Shown piece after piece: positions 2,708 to 20,384 of a DNA stretch of 20,491 bases (positions are counted from its first letter, which is position 1; each line of letters opens with the position of its first letter). The position numbers were made by a program, and so were the translations under genes. Location of the stretch: positions 1-20,491 of the forward strand of contig JBDLKA010000063.1 of NCBI GenBank assembly GCA_039714075.1. The letters run 5' to 3'. This stretch comes from Candidatus Krumholzibacteriota bacterium. Its GTDB lineage: Bacteria; Krumholzibacteriota; Krumholzibacteriia; LZORAL124-64-63. A model generated the notes under the pieces. It did no database searches, was not told the DNA's origin, and worked only from the letters and a program-made list of their open reading frames with translations.

Positions 2708-3907
2708 GTGTCGTCGAGGTCATCCCGGCATGTTTTCATATCCTGCGGGGAAGCCAGCGGGGATCGATACGGAGCGGCCTTGACGGCCGCTCTGTCTTCC
2801 ATGGATCCCGATCTGCGCATTTCCGCCCTCGGGGGCGCGGGCCTGGAACAGGCGGGCGCGGAAATCATCGCCGATTCGGCGGAGCTGGCGGTGATGGGTT
2901 TTTCCGAGGTGATTTCGGCCCTGCCCACCTTGTTGCGGGTCAAGAACCGCATCGGGCGCCATCTGGTCGAGCAGAAGGTGGACCTGGTCGTCCCCATCGA
3001 TTTTCCCGGTTTCAATGGGAAGCTGGCCTCCAGCGCCCGCCGGACCGGCATTCCCGTGTTCTGGCTCATCGCTCCGCAGGTCTGGGCCTGGGGGAGTTGG
3101 CGCATTCCCGGTTTGCGGCGAAAGATCGATCGCCTGGGCACCATCCTGCCCTTTGAAACCGATTTTTTCACGCAACGCGGCTTCGAGGTGTTCCCCATGG
3201 GGCACCCGCTGATGGAGGATTACGGTCGGGATTTCCCGTTCGAGGAGAACCTGGCCGCCCGCGAAAGCCGGTTGAGCAAACGGGACGCCCCGCTGACCAT
3301 CGCCATCCTGCCCGGGAGCCGCAGACAGGAATTGAAGCATCTTCTGCCCATCCTGAAAGTGACCACCCAGGCGGTCCTGGGGCACCTGGGGGATCGCAAC
3401 GTGCGGTTCGTCGTCAGTGTCGCCCCCGGCATTGATCCGGTGACCATCAGTTCGGTGTTCGAATCGGGTGTGGAAATCACGGACCGGATATTGCCCCGTC
3501 TGCTGAATGATGCGGACCTGGCCCTCGTTTGCAGTGGGACGGCCAGCCTGGAGGCCGCGCTGGCCGGCGTGCCCCACGAACTGGTCTACCGGACCGGGGC
3601 CCTGAACGGGTTTCTGGGACGGCACCTGGTGCGGACCAACCATATCGGCCTGAGCAACATCATTCTCGGCCAGCAGATGGTTCGCGAGCACCTCCAGGAC
3701 AATGCTTCTCCGCTGCCACTGGCCCGCAATCTGCTGCGCTGGCTGTCCCGCCCCGCCGAACGGGAGGGATTCTACAATCATGTCAGAAGGGTTCGGCAAC
3801 TGTGCGGCCGGCAGGGTGTCTGGGAGCGGACCGCCCGGGCGGTGTTGGATATGATCCCGGCGGAGGCTGGTGCCCAGGCGGAAACGGCCTCCGGAAACGG
3901 CGCCTGA
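2708..3907 (+). CDS. lpxB: Lipid A disaccharide synthase
   Basis: GEASGD, AVMGFSEV, IDFPGFN, PQVWAW, ILPFE, GHPL, LPGSRRQE and SGTASLE motifs. Confidence 0.93.
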   Translation: MSSRSSRHVFISCGEASGDRYGAALTAALSSMDPDLRISALGGAGLEQAGAEIIADSAELAVMGFSEVISALPTLLRVKNRIGRHLVEQKVDLVVPIDFPGFNGKLASSARRTGIPVFWLIAPQVWAWGSWRIPGLRRKIDRLGTILPFETDFFTQRGFEVFPMGHPLMEDYGRDFPFEENLAARESRLSKRDAPLTIAILPGSRRQELKHLLPILKVTTQAVLGHLGDRNVRFVVSVAPGIDPVTISSVFESGVEITDRILPRLLNDADLALVCSGTASLEAALAGVPHELVYRTGALNGFLGRHLVRTNHIGLSNIILGQQMVREHLQDNASPLPLARNLLRWLSRPAEREGFYNHVRRVRQLCGRQGVWERTARAVLDMIPAEAGAQAETASGNGA

Positions 3908-3908
3908 A

Positions 3909-4517
3909 ATGTTACTGCAACGGCTGAAACTGTTCCTCGCACCCGGCACCTGGTGGTTCCTCAAGAAAACCGTCCGGCTGAACGAACTGATCGCGGACCC
4001 AGCCTGGGGTGATCGCCCGGTCATTTTTGCCTGCCTGCACCGCGATATCCTGCCGGCCATCATGTTTGTGCGGCCCATGCGACCCGCTCTCCTGGTCAGC
4101 AACAGTCCGGATGGGGATATCCTGGTCAAAACCCTGGGCGAGGAAGATTACAGGTTCGTCCGCGGGGCCACGGGCCTTGACGGCGGTCGCGCCCTGGTCC
4201 TGCTCCGCCGGGAATTGGGTGCGGGCCACAGTGTGGGACTGGCCGTGGACGGGCCCGAAGGGCCGTTCGGCGCCATCCGGGAGGGCGTTCTGCACCTGGC
4301 CCGGATGACCGGAGCCATCGTCGTGCCCCTGGTGGCCAAAGCCAGCCGGCCCCTGGTCCTGGAAACCTGGGATCGAACCGTGGTGCCCGTTCCCTTTCGT
4401 CGGGTGGAAATGGAAATTGGTCCGGCTCTGCGAATCCCCCCAGACGCCGGGGCGGATGACATGGCCGGTTTTTTCCGTATTCTGGAGGAATTCTACGGTG
4501 TCCAGGAGGAGATGTGA
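3909..4517 (+). CDS. DUF374-family (LpxJ-like) lipid A / lysophospholipid acyltransferase
   Basis: IFACLH, LVSNSPDGDIL, VRGATG, AVDGPEGP and TWDRTVVPVPF resemble DUF374 motifs (FWH, SxSxDGE, VRGS, DGPxGP, WD...PxPF); located between lpxB and lpxK; ATG 3909 is 1 nt after the lpxB stop. Confidence 0.8.
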   Translation: MLLQRLKLFLAPGTWWFLKKTVRLNELIADPAWGDRPVIFACLHRDILPAIMFVRPMRPALLVSNSPDGDILVKTLGEEDYRFVRGATGLDGGRALVLLRRELGAGHSVGLAVDGPEGPFGAIREGVLHLARMTGAIVVPLVAKASRPLVLETWDRTVVPVPFRRVEMEIGPALRIPPDAGADDMAGFFRILEEFYGVQEEM

Positions 4518-5689
4518 TGCGGATTCTCGACCTGCGTCCCCGGACCGTTCGTTTCATGTCGTCCCTGTGGCGGAAGGGTGCTCCCGTTCGGGGCTGCCTG
4601 GCCAAACGGCCCGACTCCCGCAACCCTTTCACAAACCTGATGGGCAAGGTGACCGACAATGTGGTCGCCCGCCGCGTGGCGGCGCGCAAGCCTGCCGCCG
4701 GCGGCCCGGCCATTGTCTCGGTGGGAAACCTGGCCCTCGGCGGAACCGGGAAGACTCCCGTCGTGACGGCCCTGGCCCGTGATCTGGCGGATGACCGCTG
4801 GCGCGGGGCCGTGCTGACCCGTGGCTTCGGATCCCCCTTGTCCGGTCCGCTGGCGGTTGATCCGGGGAATGTCCTGGCCGGTGACGAGGCGCGGCTGATG
4901 GCCGCGGCTTTGGATCCGTGCCAGTGGCCTGTCATTCAGGCGCGGCACCGGGCGCGGGGTTTGGAGTACCTGGTTGAAGAGCACCCGGGAATCGAGATAG
5001 TGATCGTGGAGGACGGTCATCAAACCGCCCGTCTTGGCCGTCATCTTGATGTGGTCATCCTTGATGCCTGGACGGTGGATGACGTTCAGGGATCACCACG
5101 AATCCATCCGGTGACCGGGGCGGTCTTCCCTTTCGGGCCGTGGCGGGAATCGTCCGCGGGTGCGGAACGGGCGGGGATCTGGCTTTTGGAAACCGAGGAA
5201 CCGGTGCCCGCCGAGGGAATGAACGGGCAGGCAGTGGCTGCTTTTTCCCGGCACCTGTCATTGCGTGATGCGCAAGAGGGATCCCTGTTTGAAACGCCGG
5301 ACGGACGGTTCGCGGTTCTTTCGGGAATCGCCCGACCCGCGGCTTTCGAAAAGGCTCTCGAACAGGTTCTGGTCCATGAACCGGTCTTGTCCATCAGGTT
5401 CGGTGATCATGCCGACTACACGCCCCGGGACGCGGCCGACATCAGGCGCGAGGTCGAAGAAGCAGGCGCGGACTTCCTGGTGACCACCGCCAAGGACTGG
5501 GTCAAGCTGGAACCCTTCTGGTCGAACGGTCCCCGGGTCCTGTTGGCGGATCTGGAAATTCGCTGGGGCGGGGAATCGACGCTGCCGGAACTGGTTGCCG
5601 AGCGCCTGGGCGCCTTGCGTGCCCGCCCGTCCGGTCATTCCACCCGGGAACAGCTGGAATCGGGAAACCGTTTCGCCGATGGCGATTGA
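4517..5689 (+). CDS. lpxK: Tetraacyldisaccharide 4'-kinase (divergent)
   Basis: VGNLALGGTGKTP P-loop, GDEA, EDGHQ, PFGPWRE, GIARP, FGDHADY and TTAKDWVKL motifs; TGATG coupling to the upstream gene and AGGAGG at 4504-4509. Confidence 0.88.
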   Translation: MRILDLRPRTVRFMSSLWRKGAPVRGCLAKRPDSRNPFTNLMGKVTDNVVARRVAARKPAAGGPAIVSVGNLALGGTGKTPVVTALARDLADDRWRGAVLTRGFGSPLSGPLAVDPGNVLAGDEARLMAAALDPCQWPVIQARHRARGLEYLVEEHPGIEIVIVEDGHQTARLGRHLDVVILDAWTVDDVQGSPRIHPVTGAVFPFGPWRESSAGAERAGIWLLETEEPVPAEGMNGQAVAAFSRHLSLRDAQEGSLFETPDGRFAVLSGIARPAAFEKALEQVLVHEPVLSIRFGDHADYTPRDAADIRREVEEAGADFLVTTAKDWVKLEPFWSNGPRVLLADLEIRWGGESTLPELVAERLGALRARPSGHSTREQLESGNRFADGD

Positions 5690-5761
5690 CCTTCGCCGTT
5701 GATAACCTGAATATCGGGGAGCGTATTTCACCCTGAGGTTCTCCGACCCGGAAGGTGGCAG

Positions 5762-7438
5762 GTGAGTTCACGATTTTTTGCTGATCCGGTCTCAAGTCGC
5801 TGCCTGGTTATTGGATCAGGTATCGCCGGGTTGCAGTTCGCTCTTCATGCCGCCCATCAGGGCCCCGTCCGTGTCGTGACCAAAAAAGAAAGCAATGAAA
5901 GCAATACAAACTACGCCCAGGGAGGCATCGCCGCGGCCGTTTCTCCCCTGGATGATTTCGAAACCCATGTGCAGGACACTCTCCTGGCCGGCGACGGCCT
6001 CTGCAACGAGGAAGTCGTCCGGAAGATGGTGGAGGCCGGTCCTGGACTGATCGACCGCCTGCTTTCCTACGGAATCCAGTTCAGCCGCGAGGGAGAGGGT
6101 GACGATGCGGCCTTTGCCCTTGGTCGCGAAGGGGGCCATTCCCGCCGCCGGGTCCTGCACTGCCGCGACCTGACCGGACGGGAGATCGAAAGCCGTCTGC
6201 TGGAGGCCTGCGCGAATCATCCCAACATATCCCTGGACGAGGACCACATGGGATTGGAGTTGCTCAAGGGCGAGGTTCTGGGGTGGACCGGGGACATGAG
6301 CGCCCGGGTGGTCGGGTGTCTGGTACTTGATCGCCGGACCCTTGCCCGTCAGGCCTACTTCGCCGATGCGGTCGTCCTGGCAACGGGCGGCTGCGGCAAG
6401 GTCTACAGCTATACCAGCAACCCCGACATAGCCACCGGTGACGGCCTGGCGATGGCCTACCGCGCGGGCGCCGAACTCCGGAACCTGGAATTCGTGCAGT
6501 TCCATCCCACCTGCCTCTACCATCCGGAAGCCAAAAGCTTCCTGATTTCCGAAGCCGTTCGCGGCGAGGGCGGGCGCCTGATCAACGGCCGCGGTGAACG
6601 TTTCATGCAGCGGTATCATCAGATGGGGGATCTCGCGCCGCGGGATGTCGTGGCCCGCAGCATCGACCAGGAAATGAAGACCAGCGGTGATACCTCCGTT
6701 TTCCTGGATCTGCGCCACCTGGACCGTCATAAAGTCCAGGACCGGTTCCCCAACCTGGTAAATATGTGCGCCAAGTTCGGAATCGACATGGCGGGAGAAC
6801 CCGTTCCCGTGGTGCCGGCCGCCCATTACATGTGCGGTGGAGTGGCGGTCGATCTGGATGCCCGGACCAGTCTGCCCGGCCTGTACGCCATCGGGGAAAT
6901 TGCCTGTTCCGGTGTCCACGGGGCCAACCGCCTGGCCAGCAATTCCCTGCTCGAAGCCGTTTTCTTCGCCACCCGCGCCGCCGCGGCCATCGCCGACGAG
7001 AAGGCTTACGTCGGGGAAATGACGCCCGCCCTGGCGCCGGGGTTCGGCGGCCGGGAGAGCGGCGTTCCCGGGGCCCAGGTCATGGTGCTGGAGCACGACT
7101 GGGACCTGGTGCGGCGGGTCATGTGGGATTACGTGGGAATCGTGCGCAGCAGGGAACGGCTCGATATCGCCCTGGACCGGTTGCGCTCCATCAGGCAGAC
7201 GGTCGAAAGCGTGTACCGGTCTTCGGTCATCGATCCGGCCACCGTCGAACTGCGGAACATCGCCCTGCTGGGTGAATTGATCGTGCTCAGCGCCCGCGCC
7301 CGCCAGGAAAGCCGCGGTCTGCACTTCACGCTGGACCATCCCCACCAGTTGGCGACGGCTGAAGATTCCCGCATCTGTCGCCATGAAGATCTGGCCGGGG
7401 AGACCAGCTGGGAGGCCCCGGAGGAATCCCTTGGGTGA
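5762..7438 (+). CDS. nadB: L-aspartate oxidase
   Basis: GSGIAG FAD motif, NTNYAQGGIA, EGGHSRRR, EFVQFHPT, LISEAVRGEG, LAPRDVVAR, PAAHYMCGG, HGANRLASNSLLE and ESRGLH motifs. Confidence 0.93.
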   Translation: MSSRFFADPVSSRCLVIGSGIAGLQFALHAAHQGPVRVVTKKESNESNTNYAQGGIAAAVSPLDDFETHVQDTLLAGDGLCNEEVVRKMVEAGPGLIDRLLSYGIQFSREGEGDDAAFALGREGGHSRRRVLHCRDLTGREIESRLLEACANHPNISLDEDHMGLELLKGEVLGWTGDMSARVVGCLVLDRRTLARQAYFADAVVLATGGCGKVYSYTSNPDIATGDGLAMAYRAGAELRNLEFVQFHPTCLYHPEAKSFLISEAVRGEGGRLINGRGERFMQRYHQMGDLAPRDVVARSIDQEMKTSGDTSVFLDLRHLDRHKVQDRFPNLVNMCAKFGIDMAGEPVPVVPAAHYMCGGVAVDLDARTSLPGLYAIGEIACSGVHGANRLASNSLLEAVFFATRAAAAIADEKAYVGEMTPALAPGFGGRESGVPGAQVMVLEHDWDLVRRVMWDYVGIVRSRERLDIALDRLRSIRQTVESVYRSSVIDPATVELRNIALLGELIVLSARARQESRGLHFTLDHPHQLATAEDSRICRHEDLAGETSWEAPEESLG

Positions 7439-8225
7439 GGGTTGGTTCAAAGCGGCCTTCGGAGCCCATTATCCCCTGCTTTACCAACACCGGGATGCCG
7501 CGGAGGCCGGGCGCTGTATTGCCATGCTGCAGGGCCTGGCGCCGTTCACCCGGCGGCCGGGGGACCTTGTCCTGGACCTGGGGTGCGGCGATGGACGGCA
7601 CCTTGAACTACTTTTCAGGCTTGGGATTGCCGCCGTGGGTCTGGACCTTTCGGTCCATCTGCTGGATCGGGCCCGTGCCCGGGAAGGGGGGTCTTCCCGA
7701 TATCCCCTGGTACGCGGAGACATGCGCCATCTCCCTTTGGCGGATGATTCCTTTGTCTCGGTCCTGTCCCTGTTCACCGCTTTCGGGTATTTCGGCACTC
7801 CGGCCGACAACAAGGCGCCCGTGCAGGAAGTGGCCCGGGTGCTGAAACAGGGCGGGCGGTGGTATCTGGATTATTTCGACGGTGACCGGGTGCTCGCGGA
7901 ACTGGGCTCCGGCAGCCGGAAGGAAAGGGAAAGGGAACTGGGTCCTTTGACCGTCCGTGAAATACGCCGCTACGAAGCGGATCGATCCCTGGTCGCCAAA
8001 GAGGTGCATCTGAGGCCAAGGTCCGGAAAACAGGAAGAAGCCCTGGCCCTGGGAGTGCCTTCACAGGGACTGGAGTATACGGAACAGGTTGCCGTGTTCA
8101 CCCTGCCGGAACTGGATGACATGGCTGCCGGCCAAGGGTTGCACCGGGTGGCCGCCGCAGGTGGTTATGAAGGCCAGGTTCTGGGTGAGGGAACCCGATG
8201 GATCCTCGTTTACCAAAAGGCGTAA
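7431..8225 (+). CDS. Class I SAM-dependent methyltransferase, candidate bacillithiol N-methyltransferase (NmbA-like)
   Basis: VLDLGCGDGRH motif I, GLDLS, RGDMRHLP, LSLFTAFGYF; N-terminal WFxxxFGxxYxxLYxHRD. Probable TTG start at 7431 (GGAGGA at 7420-7425), overlapping the nadB end by 8 nt. The methyltransferase call is firm; the substrate is inferred from gene context. Confidence 0.85.
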   Translation: MGEGWFKAAFGAHYPLLYQHRDAAEAGRCIAMLQGLAPFTRRPGDLVLDLGCGDGRHLELLFRLGIAAVGLDLSVHLLDRARAREGGSSRYPLVRGDMRHLPLADDSFVSVLSLFTAFGYFGTPADNKAPVQEVARVLKQGGRWYLDYFDGDRVLAELGSGSRKERERELGPLTVREIRRYEADRSLVAKEVHLRPRSGKQEEALALGVPSQGLEYTEQVAVFTLPELDDMAAGQGLHRVAAAGGYEGQVLGEGTRWILVYQKA

Positions 8226-8238
8226 GAGACGAATCTGC

Positions 8239-9855
8239 ATGAGTATGCCCGTTAAAACTCTTGAAAGACTAGATGCGGCGGTTCCGTCCGGCAAAATGTT
8301 CCGCGATTGGCTGGGAATTGGCCTTGAGGCGGATTTTCTGGCCCCGGAACAGGGGGATGCGTCCGGGGAACTGTCCGCGGCCCTTGCCGGCTCCGCTACC
8401 ACGGCCGGGAGCGAAACCGGGCCGTCACCTTTGTTCGGCTCGGCCTGGGTGGGCCGCTGGTCGGATTCGTTGGCCGAAGACCTTCCCCATGAAAACGACC
8501 GGGCCGCATTCCGGGCCCAGGTCGCCGACCTCCAGGCCGGAGTGGCGGATGTGGTGGTGACCGGTCAACAGCCCGGCTACCTGGGAGGTCCTCTCTATAC
8601 GCTCTTCAAAGTCGCCACGGTCATCGCTTTGGCCAGACGCAGGTCCGCTGCCGGAAAGCCCACCGTGCCGGTTTTCTGGAGTGGGGACGCGGACGACGAC
8701 CTGGCCGAAGCCCTGGCTCCGGTGGCCTGGTTTCCCGGCGAATCCGGTCTTCAGCGCGGCCCGACGGCGTCGCAGGGTCCCGCAGGCCGGTCCCGGTCGC
8801 CCGTACTGGGTCGTCTGGCAAATGATGCCTGGAACAGCCAGGCGGCTTCCCTGTTGGACCGTGTCAACACGCTCCACGAGGGTGAATCCGGACGATTGGC
8901 AGGCGACCTGGCGGAAATCTGGCGCCTGGCCGAAACCCGGGGCTGGGGCTGGGCGCGGTTGTCCCGGCGGGCGATCCTACGCGTGTTTGCCGGCACCGGC
9001 CTAGTTGTTGTCTCGGGTGATGATCCCGGGTTGCACGCGGTGGCGGGACCCCTGTACCGGGAGATTCTGGACAAGCAGGATATCCTGGCCCGGCAGGCCG
9101 AACAAAGGGGCAACCAATTGACCGCCCACGGCTGGCACGCCCAGATCAATGCCCGCTCCCTCGCGCGGCCGCTTTTCAAGATGGTTGAGGACCACAGGGT
9201 GCCTTTGGAGGCGGGGGACCAGGATACGGATCCTTCCCTGTTGCGACCGGGTGTCATGCTGCGCAGTCCCATCCAGGATTGGCTGCTGCGGCCGGCCGCG
9301 GTGGTGGTGGGGCCCGGGGAAATGGCATATCTGCGGCAACTCGACCCCTTGTACCGGGAATTGAACCTCCCCAGGTCGCCTTTGGTGCCGCGCCTGTTTG
9401 CCTGGTTGCTGCCGGAAGGTTTCGAACCCGCCGTGCTGGCGGATTTCAGGAATCATCCGGCGGCTGAAGCGAATCTGGTCTCCAACCTGGCCGCCGAGGC
9501 CGAGGATAAGGTCCGCCTGGTGTTGGAGGACATCCTGGCAGGGCGGCTGGGTCTGGAAAAGGGACGGGCCCGATCCCTGGCGGCCGGCCGGGCCCGGCGC
9601 TGGAGCAAGGGCGTGGGAGCCATGCTGCGTGGCGAAATCAAACAGTCCCGCCTGGATGCCGTCTCGGGTTTGCCCCCCTGGATCTTCCCTGACGGCGCCC
9701 GCCAGGAACGAAGCCTGGCCTACCAGTGCGCCGCCGCCTTGTGGGGAGAATCCCTGGTGACCGCCTGTCTGGAAGCGGCGTCGATGCATCTGGAGGAGGG
9801 AGCCCGGGACAACTGGCGGGAATTCTCGATCCAGGTGCCGGATCCCGGCCAATGA
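8239..9855 (+). CDS. bshC: Bacillithiol biosynthesis cysteine-adding enzyme BshC (divergent)
   Basis: VVTGQQPGYLGGPLYTLFK, PVFW, GPGEMAY and QER motifs characteristic of BshC/YllA; about 538 aa; adjacent to bshB and bshA. Start is ATG 8239 or 8245. Confidence 0.88.
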   Translation: MSMPVKTLERLDAAVPSGKMFRDWLGIGLEADFLAPEQGDASGELSAALAGSATTAGSETGPSPLFGSAWVGRWSDSLAEDLPHENDRAAFRAQVADLQAGVADVVVTGQQPGYLGGPLYTLFKVATVIALARRRSAAGKPTVPVFWSGDADDDLAEALAPVAWFPGESGLQRGPTASQGPAGRSRSPVLGRLANDAWNSQAASLLDRVNTLHEGESGRLAGDLAEIWRLAETRGWGWARLSRRAILRVFAGTGLVVVSGDDPGLHAVAGPLYREILDKQDILARQAEQRGNQLTAHGWHAQINARSLARPLFKMVEDHRVPLEAGDQDTDPSLLRPGVMLRSPIQDWLLRPAAVVVGPGEMAYLRQLDPLYRELNLPRSPLVPRLFAWLLPEGFEPAVLADFRNHPAAEANLVSNLAAEAEDKVRLVLEDILAGRLGLEKGRARSLAAGRARRWSKGVGAMLRGEIKQSRLDAVSGLPPWIFPDGARQERSLAYQCAAALWGESLVTACLEAASMHLEEGARDNWREFSIQVPDPGQ

Positions 9856-9871
9856 GAGGAATTCCGATAAC

Positions 9872-10642
9872 ATGATCAACCGCGAAGAACACGCCTGTGA
9901 TCTGCTGGTCGTTTCCCCGCACACCGACGACGCTGAAATCGGTCTGGGCGGAACGATTAAGCTCCTGTCCCAAAAAGGGCGCCGGGTTTGGGCCGTCGAC
10001 CTGACACGGGGCGAACTGGGAACCAACGCCACCTGCTCCGAACGCTGGGCCGAGGCCGGGAAGGCCTCCGCGGTGCTGGGATTGACCGGCCGCGCGCAGC
10101 TGGAATTGCCCGATGGATTCATTGACAGCACCGACCGCGAACAGGTGTCCAAGGTGGCGGCGGCCATCTGTCGGTTGAAGCCCCGCTGGATCGTGACGGC
10201 GCCTGATCCGGTCCGCCATCCGGACCATCAGGAAACCCCGAAGCTCGTGGCCCGGGCCGCCTTCCTGTCGCGCCTGGCCGCCTGGGAAACAGGGGAGCCG
10301 GGCGGGCAGGTATGGGACGGCGGCGCCTCCTGGCCCGCCCCGGCGGAACGCTGGGAAACCGAGGCGGTCTTTTCCGTATGCCCGGATGACGGAACTCCCG
10401 CCATCCTGTTCGACATCGGTTCCACCTGGCAGGCCAAGCAGGAGGCCCTGGCCTGTTACGCCAGCCAGTTCGCCCGGCAGGAGGGACGCCGCCCCACCTG
10501 GATCAATGATGCCGCCTTCATGGAAAAAATCGAACGGCGGGCCCGGACCTGGGGCCGATGCGCGGGTGTGGAACTTGCCGAAGGATTGTGCTCGGTGGCC
10601 ACGCCGGTAATGACCGACATTCCCACGGAAAGGTGGCTCTGA
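9872..10642 (+). CDS. bshB1: PIG-L/LmbE family deacetylase, GlcNAc-malate deacetylase BshB1-like
   Basis: SPHTDDAEIGLGG, DLTRGELGT, LPDG, RHPDH and YASQF motifs; TGATG-coupled to bshA. Confidence 0.85.
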   Translation: MINREEHACDLLVVSPHTDDAEIGLGGTIKLLSQKGRRVWAVDLTRGELGTNATCSERWAEAGKASAVLGLTGRAQLELPDGFIDSTDREQVSKVAAAICRLKPRWIVTAPDPVRHPDHQETPKLVARAAFLSRLAAWETGEPGGQVWDGGASWPAPAERWETEAVFSVCPDDGTPAILFDIGSTWQAKQEALACYASQFARQEGRRPTWINDAAFMEKIERRARTWGRCAGVELAEGLCSVATPVMTDIPTERWL

Positions 10643-11775
10643 TGAAGATGCCCGCCGTCGGCATAACCTGCTACGCCAGCCAGGGGGGCAGCGGTGTCGT
10701 GGCCACGGAATTGGGACTGCACCTTTCCCGCAGGGGTTGCGAGGTCCATTTCATCTCCGCGGAAATGCCTTTCCGGTTGCGGAAATATCATGAAAACATC
10801 TTCTATCATCCCGTGGAGATGCCCCACTACCCCGTTTTTCAACATTCTCCCTACACCTTGAGCCTGGCCACGGCCATGAGCGAGGTGGCCACCAGGTGCG
10901 CCCTGGACATCCTTCATGTCCATTATGCCATTCCCCATGCGGCCAGCGCCTATCTGGCCCGGGATATGGTCGGCCGGGACAAACTCAAGGTCGTGACCAC
11001 CCTCCATGGGACCGATATCACCCTCGTAGGGCAGGAACCGTCGTTTTTCCCGATGACCCGCTTTCTGATCGACCAGAGCGATGCCGTGACCGCGGTATCG
11101 GATTTCCTGAAAAAAGAGACCATCGAGGTTTTCGGGACCGGGCATGACATTGAAGTGATTCCCAACTTCGTCGATGCGCGGGTTTTCAAGCCGACCGACA
11201 CCCATTCCCTGCGCGAACGGTTCGCTCCCCAGGGAGAGAAACTGCTCGCCCATGCGTCCAACTTTCGTAAAGTCAAGAACGTAGGGGCGGTGGTTGATGT
11301 ATTCAAGGAGGTTTCAGCGGCCCTGCCCAGTCGGCTTCTTCTGATCGGGGACGGACCCGAAATGGGGGGTGTCCGGGAGATGGTCGCGGCCGCAGGCCTA
11401 TCCGAAAAGGTGGAGTTCCTGGGGCAGGTGGACAGCCTGGAGGAGATTCTACCGGTGGCAGACCTGCTGCTTTTACCCTCCCTGCATGAATCCTTCGGCC
11501 TGGTGGCGCTGGAAGCCATGTCCTGCGGGGTGGTTCCATTGGCCACCAGCCGGGGCGGCGCCGGGGAGTTCATCCAGGACGGTTTGAACGGTTTCCTGCG
11601 GGATCCCCAGGATGTTCCGGGAATGGTCGCCGCGGCGGTTAAAGTTCTTCAGGATGACAATTTACGCGAGGAAATGGCCGAAGAGGCACGCCGGGATGCC
11701 GCGGGCGATTTCGGTGTCTCCTGCGTGGTTAAACAATACCTGGATCTGTACGACCGGTTGCTGGCGGGCTCCTGA
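10642..11775 (+). CDS. bshA: N-acetyl-alpha-D-glucosaminyl L-malate synthase (GT4)
   Basis: GITCYASQGGSGVVATELG, HVHYAIPHA, TTLHGTDITLVG, SNFRKVK and ESFGLVALEAM are BshA signature motifs. Confidence 0.94.
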   Translation: MKMPAVGITCYASQGGSGVVATELGLHLSRRGCEVHFISAEMPFRLRKYHENIFYHPVEMPHYPVFQHSPYTLSLATAMSEVATRCALDILHVHYAIPHAASAYLARDMVGRDKLKVVTTLHGTDITLVGQEPSFFPMTRFLIDQSDAVTAVSDFLKKETIEVFGTGHDIEVIPNFVDARVFKPTDTHSLRERFAPQGEKLLAHASNFRKVKNVGAVVDVFKEVSAALPSRLLLIGDGPEMGGVREMVAAAGLSEKVEFLGQVDSLEEILPVADLLLLPSLHESFGLVALEAMSCGVVPLATSRGGAGEFIQDGLNGFLRDPQDVPGMVAAAVKVLQDDNLREEMAEEARRDAAGDFGVSCVVKQYLDLYDRLLAGS

Positions 11776-11801
11776 ACCATGAATCTTCCCATCACTGGTG
11801 G

Positions 11802-11829
11802 TTGACAGAAGGTCCGATGGCTTTAAAAT
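11802..11829 (+). promoter_or_regulatory. Sigma70-type promoter
   Basis: TTGACA (11802-11807), 16-nt spacer, TAAAAT (11824-11829), in an AT-richer intergenic gap about 45 nt upstream of the next start codon. Confidence 0.7.
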
Positions 11830-11874
11830 AGAAGAGGTCAATCAGCAGACGTGGCATATTTCGAGGAGAGGGCC

Positions 11875-12252
11875 ATGCATGAAACCATGGACCTGATGTT
11901 ATCCATCAGAAATCTGGCCGAAAGACGTGGTGTCTTCAGGCCGGAGGCCTATTTTTTCGTATTGGAAGCCCTGGAGAACGCCATGGCGTCCATGGACGAA
12001 CGAGGCCACATCACCGGTGAAGATCTACTGGAATGGATTCGGGACCTGGGACAGGAAAGATACGGCATCATGGCTGGTGATGTCTTCAATGTCTGGGGCG
12101 TCCACGCGACCATCGATTTCGGCCGGATCGTCTTCCACCTGGTGGAGGCGGGGTTGTTGCGGAAACGCGACGAGGATTCCCTGAGTGATTTCATCGACAA
12201 ATTCAACTTTCAGGACGCTTTCGCCTTGAAGGTTTCCGAGGGGCGGGGCTGA
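11875..12252 (+). CDS. Conserved hypothetical protein, Minf_1886 / TIGR04138-like family
   Basis: EAYFFVLEAL...HITGEDLL...YGIMAGDVFNVWGVHATIDFGRIVFHLVEAGLL...DSLSDF matches the family pattern as I recall it; GAGGAG at 11863-11868 precedes ATG 11875. Confidence 0.75.
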   Translation: MHETMDLMLSIRNLAERRGVFRPEAYFFVLEALENAMASMDERGHITGEDLLEWIRDLGQERYGIMAGDVFNVWGVHATIDFGRIVFHLVEAGLLRKRDEDSLSDFIDKFNFQDAFALKVSEGRG

Positions 12253-12458
12253 ACCCGTTTTCTCGCTGCAAATGGTTGAATTCCGAGGGAACTTTCAGGC
12301 TTGAGGTCTGTTTCTCCCGGTTGGACGATAATTGATTTGCAGAACAACTGATCTGGTCCCGTTCGGGGCCTGGTGGCGGACCAGGGAAGGACCGCCCGGA
12401 TCCGGCCGGAAGGAACAGGGCCGCATCCCCCCTATAACTGAATATCCGAGGAGACCCA

Positions 12459-13211
12459 ATGTCCGCCATGTTTCTTACGGCGATATTTCCGTCGACTTTT
12501 CTGGCTGCCCTGGGCCCGGGTGAACTCGTCGGCCTGGTGACCGACTCGACGTTCTTCGGCAAGTTCATCCTGCTGGTCCTGCTGGTTCTTTCGGTCATGT
12601 CCTGGGCGGTCTTCATCGACAGGGCGCGCACCCTGAACCGGATCCGCGCCGGCCACCAGGAATTCTGGACCAAGTGCGAGGGCTGGCTGGACAGCGGGTC
12701 GTCCGCCGGACCCGAGAAGGCCGCCCTGGTTGCCTGGTGCCGCCACAACACCGAACTGCCGCTGAGCAACCTCGTCCTGGAGACCGAATCGATGTCCCAG
12801 TGGCCCGCCATCCGGCGCGCCTCCGAGCGGGTGTCATACCTGGAGACCGAAAACCTGGAGCGGTACCTCATCCTGCTTTCGACCGCCGTGACGATCTCGC
12901 CCTTTCTGGGGCTGCTGGGAACGGTGTGGGGCATCATGAGCTCGTTCTGGGGCATGGCCTCTATGCAGAGCGCCAACCTGACGGTGGTCGCGCCGGGTAT
13001 CGCCGAGGCCCTGATCACGACCATCGCCGGGCTCGCCACCGCGATCCCCGCTGTCATCTTCTACAACATGACCGTCCGGAAGATCGACCTGGTGGGCAAC
13101 GAGGTCGACCGGTTGCGGACCGTGCTCGAGGAAGCGGCCGGCGGCGAAGCGGCGCCCGCGGGGAGGGACCAGAGCCTTAGGCCCGACCTGCATGACCGGG
13201 AGACCATCTGA
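12459..13211 (+). CDS. tolQ: MotA/TolQ/ExbB proton channel protein
   Basis: Three TM segments, SPFLGLLGTVWGIM and APGIAEALITTIAGLATAIPAVIFYN; first gene of the tol-pal cluster; GAGGAG RBS. Confidence 0.9.
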   Translation: MSAMFLTAIFPSTFLAALGPGELVGLVTDSTFFGKFILLVLLVLSVMSWAVFIDRARTLNRIRAGHQEFWTKCEGWLDSGSSAGPEKAALVAWCRHNTELPLSNLVLETESMSQWPAIRRASERVSYLETENLERYLILLSTAVTISPFLGLLGTVWGIMSSFWGMASMQSANLTVVAPGIAEALITTIAGLATAIPAVIFYNMTVRKIDLVGNEVDRLRTVLEEAAGGEAAPAGRDQSLRPDLHDRETI

Positions 13212-17080: not shown

Positions 17081-17410
17081 GTGCCGAAGTTTCCCGTTCT
17101 CAAGATGGCCCGTGGCCTGTCCCAGGTGTTTCGTCCCGTCGAGGTGACCAACATCGACGACGATCATCACGCCTTCATTGTCCGCTACAGCGGGGACTAC
17201 ATCGTCCATTCCCACGACAAGGATGAATTCGTCTACATCCTGGAAGGGTCCCTGGTCGTGGAGATGGACGGCAGGGAAGTGGAGGTGCGCCAGGGGGAAG
17301 CCTTCCTGGTTCCCGCCGGCACCCTGCACCGGCCCCGCTGCAAGAACATGGCCCTCGGGCTGGTGGTCGAAACCCGGGGCTTGCAGAAGCAGATGGATCC
17401 CCAGGTCTGA
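17081..17410 (+). CDS. Small cupin-domain protein
   Basis: HSHDKDEFVYILEG and GEAFLVPAGTLHRP cupin metal motifs; GTG 17081 follows AAGGAG at 17067-17072. Confidence 0.85.
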   Translation: MPKFPVLKMARGLSQVFRPVEVTNIDDDHHAFIVRYSGDYIVHSHDKDEFVYILEGSLVVEMDGREVEVRQGEAFLVPAGTLHRPRCKNMALGLVVETRGLQKQMDPQV

Positions 17411-17425
17411 CCTGGACCCAGGCAC

Positions 17426-17458
17426 AAAAAAGGGCGGCCGACGGGCCGCCCTTTTTTT
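17426..17458. terminator. Bidirectional intrinsic terminator
   Basis: AAAAAA-GGGCGGCC-GACG-GGCCGCCC-TTTTTTT between the convergent cupin and fbp genes. Confidence 0.92.
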
Positions 17459-17487
17459 GTCCCGATTTTGTCCCGAGTTTGTTCGGA
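17455..17487. repeat. 11-bp tandem repeat (two exact copies plus one degenerate)
   Basis: TTTTGTCCCGA TTTTGTCCCGA GTTTGTTCGGA. Confidence 0.7.
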
Positions 17488-17495
17488 AACCTGCC

Positions 17496-18560
17496 TCAGA
17501 TTGCCCCGGGCCCCTCGCTGATCATCTTTTCGATCCACAGTACGTCGCCCCGGCTGCCGATGTAGAGCGGCACCCTCATGTGCAGGTCGTCCGGAACGAC
17601 GTCCAGGATGGATCCGTTGCCGTCGCTGGCGTAGCCGCCCGCGTTCTCGACGATCATGGCCAGCGGCGCGGCTTCGCACATCAGCCGGAGCTTGCCCTGG
17701 GGGTGCTTGGTCGTGGGGGGGTAGAGGTACACTCCGCCGTACAGGAGGTTGCGGTGGAAGTCGGCCACCAGCGAACCGATGTACCGCGACGACATGCCCG
17801 CCCCTTCGGTGGGGGCGTCGCCGCGGGTGGTCTTATGCGCATCCCGGCCGTACTTGAGCTGGCGCAGGACCTCCCTCACCTGGGGACTCCACTTGGGCTC
17901 GTAGGCTTCGTTCACGGAATAGATCTTCCCGGTGAAGGGAGTGGTGATGTTTTCGTGGCTGAGCAGGAACTCGCCGATGGCCGGATCCAGCGTAAAACCG
18001 TGGACCCCGCTGCCGGCCGTGTAGACGAACATGGTGCTGGACCCGTAGATGATGTACCCGGCGGCCACCAGTTCGGACCCGGGCTGCAGCAGGTCGTCCT
18101 GGTTGACGCTGGCCAGTTGGGACTTCCTTTTCCAGATCCCGAAAATGGTCCCCACCGAAACGTTGGCCTCGATGTTGGAACTGCCGTCAAGCGGATCGAA
18201 CACCACGATGTATTTGCCGGTGCCCTGGCTTGTGTCGGCGAAAATGGGGTCGGCCACTTCCTCGCTGCCCATGATGCAGACCTGCCCGCGGCGGCCCAGG
18301 CATTTCAGGAACACGTTATTGGCGAAACTGTCCAGCTTCTGGACCACCTCGCCCTGGATGTTCTCTTCGTCGGTGGCGCCCAGGATGTCCTCGACCAGAC
18401 CGGCCTTGGTGACGTCCCGGCTGACGACCTTGGCAGCGAACGAGATGTCGTTCAAAAGACTGGTGAAATCGCCGCTGGCGCTCGGGTGCAGCCGCTGCAG
18501 GTCAAGGACGTGGGATTCGATGGTTTGCAGATTCCTGGGAGCCATGGTCATTTCGGGCAT
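17496..18560 (-). CDS. fbp: Class I fructose-1,6-bisphosphatase
   Basis: VQKLD, SEE, FDPLDGSSNI...VGTIFGI, YSVNE, RYIGSLVADFHRNLLYGG and GKLRL motifs. Start is ambiguous among three nearby Met codons. Confidence 0.95.
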   Translation of the reverse strand: MPEMTMAPRNLQTIESHVLDLQRLHPSASGDFTSLLNDISFAAKVVSRDVTKAGLVEDILGATDEENIQGEVVQKLDSFANNVFLKCLGRRGQVCIMGSEEVADPIFADTSQGTGKYIVVFDPLDGSSNIEANVSVGTIFGIWKRKSQLASVNQDDLLQPGSELVAAGYIIYGSSTMFVYTAGSGVHGFTLDPAIGEFLLSHENITTPFTGKIYSVNEAYEPKWSPQVREVLRQLKYGRDAHKTTRGDAPTEGAGMSSRYIGSLVADFHRNLLYGGVYLYPPTTKHPQGKLRLMCEAAPLAMIVENAGGYASDGNGSILDVVPDDLHMRVPLYIGSRGDVLWIEKMISEGPGAI

Positions 18561-18616
18561 CCTCGGCAGCGCCGCAAGGGCGAGTGGACTGGGTCATGGA
18601 TACGGGGTTTGTCAAC

Positions 18617-18644
18617 ATAGTAACAGCATGTGGGATCCCCACAA
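18617..18644 (-). promoter_or_regulatory. Putative extended -10 promoter for fbp
   Basis: Minus strand reads TTGTGG-N16-TACTAT with a TGn extension (TGTTACTAT), about 55 nt upstream of the fbp start. Confidence 0.4.
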
Positions 18645-18743
18645 CGATTCTCTTGCTTTGGCCCCTTTTGTTTGCCATCGTGGCGGCAGAAAATCCCTGC
18701 GCCACAGTGCGATTCTGACCAGACCTGTTCGGAAGGAAATACC

Positions 18744-20384
18744 ATGTCCGAAGCCATGTTCGACGTTCCGTTTCCCGAAAACGAGCCTGTTCTGGGGTAC
18801 CTCGAAGGATCCCCTGAAAAGAAGGAATTGAAGGCCGCGCTGAAGAAGATGGCCGGCGAGAAGATCGACATTCCCATGGTCATCGACGGCCAGGAAGTGC
18901 GCACGGGCAACCTGGCGGACTGCGTGATGCCCCACAAGCACAGCCACAAGCTGGGCCAGTACCACAAGGGCGGGGAAAAAGAGGTCAAGATGGCCATCAA
19001 GGCCGCCCAGAAGGCCAAGAAGGGCTGGGCGGCGACTCCGTTCCAGCACCGGGCGGCCATCCTGCTGAAGGCGGGCGAGCTTCTGGCCGGCCGGTACCGT
19101 CAGGTGCTCAACGCCGCGACCATGCTCGGGCAGAGCAAGAATCCCCTGCAGGCCGAAATCGACAGCGCCTGCGAACTGATCGATTTCTGGCGCTTCAACC
19201 CCCATTACGGGGCACAGATCCTGAGCGAGCAGCCGGACAGCTCCCCGGGCATGTGGAACATGCTCGAGCAGCGGCCACTGGACGGCTTCGTCTTCGCCGT
19301 CAGCCCGTTCAACTTCACCAGCATCGCCGGCAACCTGACCACCGCGCCCGCCCTGATGGGCAACACTGTGGTCTGGAAACCCGCTTCCAGTTCCGTGTTC
19401 TCCGGCCACTACATCATGGAGATCCTGAAGGAAGCCGGCATGCCCGACGGGGTGATCAACTTCGTGCCCGGCAGCGGCGGCCAGATCGGCAACCCGGTCA
19501 TGGCCAGCAGCGACCTGGCCGGCGTTCATTTCACCGGCAGCACCCAGGTTTTCCAGGGCATGTGGAAGCAGATCGGCACCAACATCCACAACTACGGCTG
19601 CTACCCGCGGATCGTGGGGGAGACCGGCGGCAAGGATTTCATCTTCGCCCATCCCAGCGCCGATGTGGACGCCCTGGTCACCGCCATGGTGCGGGGCGCC
19701 TTCGAATACCAGGGACAGAAGTGCAGCGCCGCCAGCCGGGCCTACATCCCGGAGAACCTGTGGAAAGAGGTCCGCAAGAAGCTGACCGACATGATCGCCA
19801 CGATCGCCATGGGCGACGTGACCGATTTCCGGACCTTCATGGGCGCGGTGATCGACCAGAGCGCCTTCGACAGCATCAGCGGCTACATCAAGCGCGCGCG
19901 CAGCAAGGCGGCCAAGGGTCGGGCCCGGATCATCGCCGGCGGCAAGTGCGACGATTCGAAGGGTTACTTCATCGAGCCGACGGTGATCCTGGCGGATGAC
20001 CCAATGTACGAGAGCATGGTCGAGGAGATCTTCGGTCCCGTGCTGACGGTCCACGTCTACAAGGAAAAGGATCTGCTGAAGACCCTGCGCCTGTGCGACA
20101 AATCCTCGGCCTACGCCCTGACCGGCGCCATCTTTGCCCAGGATCGCATGGCCCTGATCAAGATGAAGGAAGAGTTGGAGGGCACCGCGGGCAACTTCTA
20201 CCTGAACGACAAGCCGACCGGCGCGGTGGTGGGGCAGCAGCCCTTCGGCGGCAGCCGGGCTTCGGGTACCAACGACAAGGCGGGAAGCTACCTGAACCTG
20301 ATCCGCTGGACGAGTCCGCGGACGGTGAAGGAAACATTTGACCCGCCCCGGGATTATCCGTACCCATATATGTCCAACCGATAA
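18744..20384 (+). CDS. pruA: L-glutamate gamma-semialdehyde (P5C) dehydrogenase, monofunctional
   Basis: NEPV, QAEIDSACELIDFWRFN, SPFNFTSI, HFTGS, GETGGKDF, FEYQGQKCSA (catalytic Cys), EEIFGP and GQQPFGGSRASGTNDK motifs; ATG 18744 follows AAGGA. Confidence 0.93.
   Translation: MSEAMFDVPFPENEPVLGYLEGSPEKKELKAALKKMAGEKIDIPMVIDGQEVRTGNLADCVMPHKHSHKLGQYHKGGEKEVKMAIKAAQKAKKGWAATPFQHRAAILLKAGELLAGRYRQVLNAATMLGQSKNPLQAEIDSACELIDFWRFNPHYGAQILSEQPDSSPGMWNMLEQRPLDGFVFAVSPFNFTSIAGNLTTAPALMGNTVVWKPASSSVFSGHYIMEILKEAGMPDGVINFVPGSGGQIGNPVMASSDLAGVHFTGSTQVFQGMWKQIGTNIHNYGCYPRIVGETGGKDFIFAHPSADVDALVTAMVRGAFEYQGQKCSAASRAYIPENLWKEVRKKLTDMIATIAMGDVTDFRTFMGAVIDQSAFDSISGYIKRARSKAAKGRARIIAGGKCDDSKGYFIEPTVILADDPMYESMVEEIFGPVLTVHVYKEKDLLKTLRLCDKSSAYALTGAIFAQDRMALIKMKEELEGTAGNFYLNDKPTGAVVGQQPFGGSRASGTNDKAGSYLNLIRWTSPRTVKETFDPPRDYPYPYMSNR

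Follow-up and report, generated by a model that had tools for sequence, protein, structure and literature searches.

The whole stretch of DNA analyzed here (the window) is the contig JBDLKA010000063.1, 20,491 bases from an uncultured Krumholzibacteriia bacterium, and four adjacent genes within it very likely encode a complete pathway to N-methyl-bacillithiol. Comparison of the predicted proteins with known families identifies the four genes, all on the + strand, as follows.

7431..8225, + strand: nmbA-like class I S-adenosylmethionine (SAM)-dependent methyltransferase (MT), 264 residues; predicted bacillithiol N-methyltransferase
8239..9855, + strand: bshC-like gene, 538 residues; predicted cysteine-adding step, divergent (TIGR03998, PF10079)
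9872..10642, + strand: bshB1-type GlcNAc-malate deacetylase, 256 residues (TIGR04001, PF02585 PIG-L)
10642..11775, + strand: bshA, N-acetylglucosaminyl-L-malate synthase, 377 residues (TIGR03999)

In the proposed pathway, BshA would couple uridine diphosphate N-acetylglucosamine (UDP-GlcNAc) to L-malate and BshB would take off the acetyl group. The BshC-like enzyme, if active as we infer, would add cysteine to give bacillithiol (BSH), and the NmbA-like MT would then move a methyl group from SAM onto the cysteine amine of BSH, so that the product would be N-methyl-bacillithiol.

The Pfam matches of the MT are confined to the generic methyltransferase families Methyltransf_11/25. When the single sequence was compared with all PDB sequences using phmmer, the best match was 9RI2 (E 2.2e-21, 79.9 bits), and the next was found at 1.9e-10. 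The entry 9RI2 is the crystal structure of NmbA from Chlorobaculum tepidum (CtNmbA, CT1040), for which biochemical work has established methylation of bacillithiol at the cysteine amine (PMC12719100). A scan of 1.84 billion representative proteins returned 59 relatives of the MT at E ≤ 1e-30, and for three of the listed relatives the match to 9RI2 spans the whole relative, with E values of 1e-35 to 1e-42 that lead every other structure by about 20 orders of magnitude. A profile constructed from 25 sequences of the window's own MT clade (47–72% identical to the window MT) matched 9RI2 with an E value of 1.1e-40 over profile positions 3–258 of 267; the next structure was CalS10 at 6.7e-18. The reciprocal profile was made from 19 homologs of named organisms outside the window's class (Paenibacillus, Brevibacillus, Kroppenstedtia, Ignavibacteria, Bacteroidota, Gemmatimonadota, Thermoanaerobaculia, Aminicenantia, Latescibacter, and Calditrichaeota). 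This profile matched 9RI2 at 6.6e-75, with the next structure at 1.5e-28. Within the window's genome it matched the MT at 4.3e-52 (177.3 bits, positions 3–241 of 243), and the next locus reached 45.5 bits (9.2e-12).

The class I SAM methyltransferase core, consisting of motif I and the acidic residues of motifs II and III, is present in the window MT. The reading frame is intact, SAM motifs I–VI are conserved, and the protein retains motif I as VLDLGCGDG, together with D72, D97, and the segment FTAFGYF. Every column that is invariant across 100 family members is kept (W5, F10, Y14, Y18, R21, D49, G53, D72, F115, G119, D147, K190, E218, and R256). The AlphaFold2 model has a predicted local distance difference test score (pLDDT) of 95.5 and a predicted template modeling score (pTM) of 0.92, with a Rossmann-like sheet and the strands of a Cap domain. 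A fusion of NmbA with BshC, which had been suggested by large stop-to-stop frames, was rejected because the MT ends at its own stop codon, after 237–280 residues, in 110/110 loci. No longer MT homologs were found at E ≤ 1e-15, which is weak evidence.

A quick IQ-TREE tree was calculated from 70 rows: the window, 23/30 class-level MTs, 39/80 named loci from other phyla, and 7/10 outgroup candidates. The window MT is found in a supported clade (Shimodaira–Hasegawa-like approximate likelihood ratio test, SH-aLRT, 96) with all of the class-level MTs in the tree and with Hydrogenedentota and Sumerlaeota. Acidobacteriota and Gemmatimonadota adjoin this clade, and the Paenibacillus/Brevibacillus clade lies further out. 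Rooting with the outgroup was abandoned; the paralogs L151–L153 fell into the basal polytomy, and four outgroup rows were located on very long branches. The tree describes nesting among named NmbA-family lineages and is not a rooted clade test. The three paralogs just mentioned (L151, L152, and L153, at G038:C3, G028:C8, and G033:C8) represent a second methyltransferase of ~250 residues in one family of the class. It scores 82–91 bits with a member of the NmbA family, differs in its N-terminal motif, and is not located beside bsh genes. An earlier reading of this DNA, made from the sequence only, had allowed that the MT might group away from NmbA; it falls with NmbA by sequence, by profile, and by reciprocal profile. 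As judged from sequence, the MT is a member of the NmbA family.

BshA can be assigned without ambiguity (TIGR03999, 492.5 bits; cut-off 273.7). BshB1 passes marginally (TIGR04001, 184.0 bits against 182.5) and also matches PF02585 PIG-L. The BshC-like protein resembles BshC in its place in the pathway and in its sole PDB match, which is BshC from Bacillus subtilis (4WBD, E 6.2e-17).

The linkage of these genes is conserved within the class. Of 41 relatives, with the genome of the window included, 37 have the MT at E ≤ 1e-10, and the loci of 30 of the 36 other MT-bearing genomes were compared (G002, G004, G005, G006, G009, and G010 were left out). The MT, BshB, and BshA occur in the same order and on the same strand in all 30. 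BshC is likewise present in every one, 28 by tblastn at > 60 bits and two by TIGR03998 (210.3 and 188.1 bits), and the order MT-bshC-bshB-bshA is therefore found in 30/30 class-level loci. The gene for L-aspartate oxidase, nadB, is upstream of the MT in 29/30, the 30th locus being cut by a contig end, and lpxK is upstream in 27/30. The four genomes of the 41 that do not contain the MT also have no BshA over the cut-off.

A phylum-wide sample of 121 genomes, all reported as belonging to a single class, was also surveyed. Of these, 85/121 carry the MT and 89/121 have BshA over the cut-off; both are found in 84 genomes, BshA only in five, the MT only in one, and neither in 31, so that the two genes are present or absent together in 115/121. 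In three of the genomes with BshA only (G095, G117, and G122), BshA is located on short contigs of fragmented assemblies. The remaining two, G056 and G082 (the latter assembled as one 4.1-Mb contig), have the gene order lpxK-nadB-bshC-bshB-bshA-Minf_1886, with no MT between nadB and bshC. Given this phyletic pattern and the MT-less operons of G082 and G056, the MT looks like an optional gene at the head of the bsh operon, which is the pattern that a tailoring enzyme should show. An optional MT is consistent with the published view of nmbA as a gene acquired in different lineages (PMC6282198).

For other phyla, we used the best 80 of > 600 pattern matches from a scan of a genome collection with the family alignment. 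The downstream genes were called by tblastn with the window's proteins, and negative calls rest on those queries only. The genes directly downstream of the MT homolog were distributed as follows.

bshC-bshB-bshA: 20/80 loci
bshC alone: 28/80 loci
bshC-bshB: 1/80 loci
bshB-bshA without detectable bshC: 1/80 loci
no bsh gene: 30/80 loci

The 20 full clusters are from Thermoanaerobaculia and other Acidobacteriota, Holophagae, Aminicenantia, one Anaerolineae, one Planctomycetota, and one unclassified metagenome-assembled genome (MAG). Most of the 28 loci in which only bshC follows are from Gemmatimonadota; the remainder are from Latescibacter, one Hydrogenedentota, and one Bacillota MAG. Six of the 30 loci without bsh genes have < 2.2 kb of downstream sequence; the 24 with sufficient room include 17 Bacillota, 3 Bacteroidota, 2 Ignavibacteria, 1 Calditrichota, and 1 Gemmatimonadota. 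Since full clusters and MT-bshC pairs recur across these loci, the four-gene arrangement is common and is not special to the window. We found no literature description of an nmbA-bshC-bshB-bshA cluster. PMC6282198 contains no operon, adjacency, or synteny wording, and PMC12719100 contains no gene-neighborhood wording. A related neighborhood was observed in Gemmatimonadota (L072, L076, L086–L088, and others), where lpxK is found ~2 kb upstream of the NmbA homolog in 21/25 loci. There, bshC alone follows the NmbA homolog, and bshB and bshA are elsewhere; the lpxK...nmbA-bshC neighborhood is common to these loci and to the window's class.

The sequence-only reading had proposed that the MT is a BSH-tailoring enzyme in a complete methylated-thiol locus. 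Membership in the NmbA family, together with a bsh linkage that is kept throughout the class-level loci and recurs in several other phyla, argues for this proposal. The same reading had described four co-oriented genes with gaps of 13 and 16 nt and a 1-nt overlap, in reverse order of the pathway, and this description is exact. The gaps are at 8226–8238 (MT/bshC) and 9856–9871 (bshC/bshB), the overlap of bshB and bshA is at 10642 within TGATG, and the gene order MT-bshC-bshB-bshA is that of the pathway reversed.

The limits of the unit were addressed with two further features.

5762..7438, + strand: nadB, L-aspartate oxidase (TIGR00551, 571.5 bits against a cut-off of 452.75)
11802..11829, + strand: promoter-like site between bshA and the next gene, TTGACA, 16 nt, TAAAAT (11 of 12 consensus positions)

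The MT most likely starts at the TTG at 7431, which is preceded by GGAGGA at 7420–7425, rather than at the alternative in-frame ATG at 7383, because the N-termini of 110 MT homologs start 2–5 residues ahead of the conserved Trp. The start of the MT and the stop codon of nadB (7436–7438) overlap by 8 nt. A simple consensus scan of positions 4400–13000 gave three promoter-like sites, against 1.3 expected from shuffled sequences, and none between nadB and the MT. The site at 11802–11829 is the only strong match in that interval and is a consensus match only. A simple scan for a terminator 3′ of bshA found none. Given this overlap and the lack of a promoter-like site ahead of the MT in the scan, the four genes are probably read through from nadB, and the 5′ limit of the unit would be at or before nadB, as far as consensus matches can indicate. 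A 3′ limit after bshA, marked by the promoter-like site, is plausible. The transcript would thus carry nmbA-bshC-bshB-bshA in that order, starting at or before nadB and probably ending after bshA. To call the operon self-contained, as had been done earlier, was an overstatement with respect to its 5′ side, where nadB overlaps the MT and is its constant neighbor; the 3′ side of that claim is plausible.

The gene that follows the promoter-like site (11851–12252) belongs to the Minf_1886 family (TIGR04138, 104 bits against a cut-off of 60), whose function is unknown. It is 3′ of bshA in 22/30 class-level loci and in both MT-less operons; none of the 80 loci sampled from other phyla showed it beside a bsh gene.

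A number of observations weigh against the assignment of the locus to N-methyl-bacillithiol. The single-sequence alignment of the MT with 9RI2 spans only residues 5–202 of 264 (~75%). The published criteria for NmbA orthologs of CT1040 are a BLAST E value ≤ 1e-20, coverage > 80%, and identity > 25% (PMC12719100, section 4.1), and the phmmer E value of 2.2e-21 against the 9RI2 sequence, with ~75% coverage of the MT, is borderline for these BLAST-based limits. A Foldseek search with the MT model ranks 9RI2 sixth (E 2.8e-18, template modeling score 0.64, root mean square deviation 7.4, ~25% identity); the top match is 9icz_B at 9.5e-19, and CypM-type and C-methyltransferase structures at ~1e-18 surround 9RI2. 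A 12-residue insertion is present in the Cap hairpin of the window's MT family; neither CtNmbA nor the other families of the class have it. The tree contains no Chlorobi sequences, and its base is a polytomy. The BshC-like protein scores 166.6 bits with TIGR03998, under the cut-off of 265.8 (PF10079, 125.8 bits). YtxJ/bacilliredoxin was not found in the window's genome, which is 92% complete, and the only YpdA-like gene of that genome is sub-threshold (159.8 bits against a cut-off of 339.9).

Some of these points can be qualified. The fold search was dropped as a test of NmbA family membership because it did not discriminate between families, and since AlphaFold is reported to mispredict the Cap topology even of CtNmbA (PMC12719100), its result is uninformative rather than negative. 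The low TIGR03998 score is general for the class and not special to the window, because the two class-level relatives detected with this model also score under the cut-off. In favor of the assignment, a search of the same genome for gshA (TIGR01434) and gshB (TIGR01380) found neither; all of these thiol-gene absences are provisional because the genome is 92% complete. The YpdA-like gene (G000:C31:31784-33115; L065:979-2310) encodes a 443-residue flavoprotein with YpdA, a putative bacillithiol disulfide reductase, as its best family and an N-terminal extension of ~170 residues. From this match, the flavoprotein is a candidate reductase for the oxidized thiol.

Three other explanations of the locus were considered. 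The product could be a modified or different thiol if the BshC-like ligase or the MT with its Cap insertion had an altered specificity, such as the use of another amino acid, methylation of another atom, or double methylation. The distance of the BshC-like protein from its cut-off points in this direction, as does the poor alignment of its first 60–100 residues even within the class. So does the 12-residue insertion, since the four-stranded Cap domain of CtNmbA, which has an unusual topology in the crystal, forms a narrow substrate basket (PMC12719100, section 2.3). However, the operon is unchanged in class-level relatives that lack the insertion, BshC is under the cut-off elsewhere in the class (210.3 and 188.1 bits), the family-invariant MT residues are all retained, and BshC is the only solved homolog of the ligase. 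An altered thiol is quite unlikely on this evidence, and there is no positive evidence for the "new thiol" that the sequence-only reading had offered as an alternative. The MT might instead be unrelated to bacillithiol and act on another substrate as one member of a string of housekeeping genes (the lpx genes, nadB, and tol-pal). Its overlap with nadB, the presence of nadB upstream in 29/30 class-level loci, and its purely generic Pfam matches are compatible with such a role, but its specific match is to CtNmbA, the adjacency of MT and bshC recurs in phyla where the neighbor is not nadB, and MT and BshA are together present or missing in 115/121 genomes. We regard this explanation as very unlikely.

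The pathway could also end at bacillithiol, with an MT that is inactive or unexpressed, and the MT-less versions of the operon in relatives are compatible with this. This is highly improbable for the window, given an intact frame with conserved SAM motifs I–VI and family invariants, a confident model, and the retention of the MT in 85/121 genomes. Production of N-methyl-bacillithiol thus remains the preferred reading of the locus. An improbable extension that takes the unusual features together is that the Cap insertion and the sub-threshold BshC could yield an undescribed bacillithiol derivative, with another methylation state or another thiol-bearing residue; separately, it would hold that nmbA-bshC-bshB-bshA with a removable nmbA head is the common arrangement outside Bacillota, Bacteroidota, and Chlorobi.

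The window is the entire contig, with a G+C content of ~62%. It belongs to a 4.06-Mb genome bin (92% complete) from an uncultured marine bacterium whose listed DNA sources are marine metagenome runs only. The MT of genome G023, which is placed in the same family as the window, carries the source name Candidatus Krumholzibacteriia bacterium, and another close match is named Krumholzibacteria bacterium. Nearly all of the plausible genes are carried on the + strand. In addition to the genes described above, the following were recognized, in order.

Lipid A block, 5′ of nadB: hexapeptide acyltransferase fragment, LpxC-FabZ fusion, lpxA, lpxB, DUF374 gene, lpxK
3′ of bshA: Minf_1886-family gene, tolQ/exbB, tolR, TonB_C protein, tolB, pal, tetratricopeptide repeat (TPR) protein
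3′ end of the window: open reading frame (ORF) without a family match, then aldehyde dehydrogenase

As the conserved upstream neighbor, nadB is probably co-transcribed with the MT; no role of nadB in the thiol pathway is shown. Within the lipid A block, LpxC and a FabA/FabZ-like dehydratase domain are combined in one 437-residue protein (513–1826; PF03331 plus PF07977), and the DUF374 gene (3870–4517) overlaps lpxB on one side and lpxK on the other. A 480-residue ORF (17178–18620) that separates the tol-pal block from the aldehyde dehydrogenase has no Pfam or NCBIfam match at E ≤ 0.001. The aldehyde dehydrogenase ORF itself (18630–20384) has 584 residues, with the Aldedh domain starting at residue 97; either the N-terminus of the protein is extended or the assigned start is too far upstream.

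Published work already covers the pathway, the enzyme, and its occurrence in diderm bacteria of the Fibrobacteres–Chlorobi–Bacteroidetes (FCB) group, and the locus is a further example rather than a new system. It leaves the known chemistry unchanged. It adds a candidate phylum beyond the published RefSeq survey, which covered 43 validly published phyla only (PMC12719100), and we found no paper that names both Krumholzibacteriota and bacillithiol. It also adds a conserved, tightly packed four-gene unit behind nadB and natural operon variants without the methyltransferase. The reading predicts N-methyl-bacillithiol as the main low-molecular-weight thiol of Krumholzibacteriia. The tight and widespread linkage of nmbA and bshC provides independent support from genomic context for the role assigned to NmbA, and natural pairs of operons with and without nmbA provide a comparative system for the purpose of N-methylation.

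The closest known system is that of C. tepidum. Like the window MT, CtNmbA is a class I SAM methyltransferase of ~260 residues (Hiras 2018, PMC6282198; Hammerstad 2025, PMC12719100). Both proteins have an N-terminal W..F...Y...Y.HR segment, a motif I of the VLD..xGxG type, and an FGYF segment. CtNmbA is the best and only close solved homolog of the window MT, and it likewise co-occurs with bshA, bshB, and bshC. The two enzymes differ in that they are only ~25% identical in the Foldseek structural alignment, motif I is GCGDG in the window MT and AxGxG in CtNmbA, and the window's MT family has the extra 12 residues in the Cap hairpin. The four genes are contiguous in the window, whereas in C. 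tepidum they have the far-apart locus tags CT0548, CT1419, CT1558, and CT1040 (PMC12719100). The sequence-only reading had implied that a diderm host is surprising. It is not, because the published producers of N-methyl-bacillithiol (Chlorobi, Bacteroidetes) are diderms (PMC6282198).

NmbA from Paenibacillus polymyxa (PpNmbA) also methylates BSH (PMC12719100, section 2.3). It is of the same family, and Paenibacillus homologs are included in the profile that matches both 9RI2 and the window MT. In contrast to the window, bsh genes were found beside the MT in 0/17 Bacillota loci with enough flanking sequence, with the queries used; P. polymyxa was not among these loci. The BshA, BshB1, and BshC proteins of B. 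subtilis are of the same three enzyme families as those of the window, where BshA and BshB1 pass their cut-offs and the BshC-like protein matches 4WBD. The B. subtilis pathway differs from that of the window, where BshC is under its cut-off and the three bsh genes are contiguous with a methyltransferase. We take bshC to be unlinked from bshA and bshB1 in B. subtilis.

The clusters of Thermoanaerobaculia and other Acidobacteriota, and those of single Planctomycetota, Anaerolineae, and Aminicenantia MAGs, have the same gene order and tight spacing as the window. All of these clusters have different upstream neighbors, whereas the lpxK-nadB lead and the downstream Minf_1886-family gene are features of the window's class. 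Gemmatimonadota resemble the window in that lpxK is likewise located upstream in most loci (21/25).

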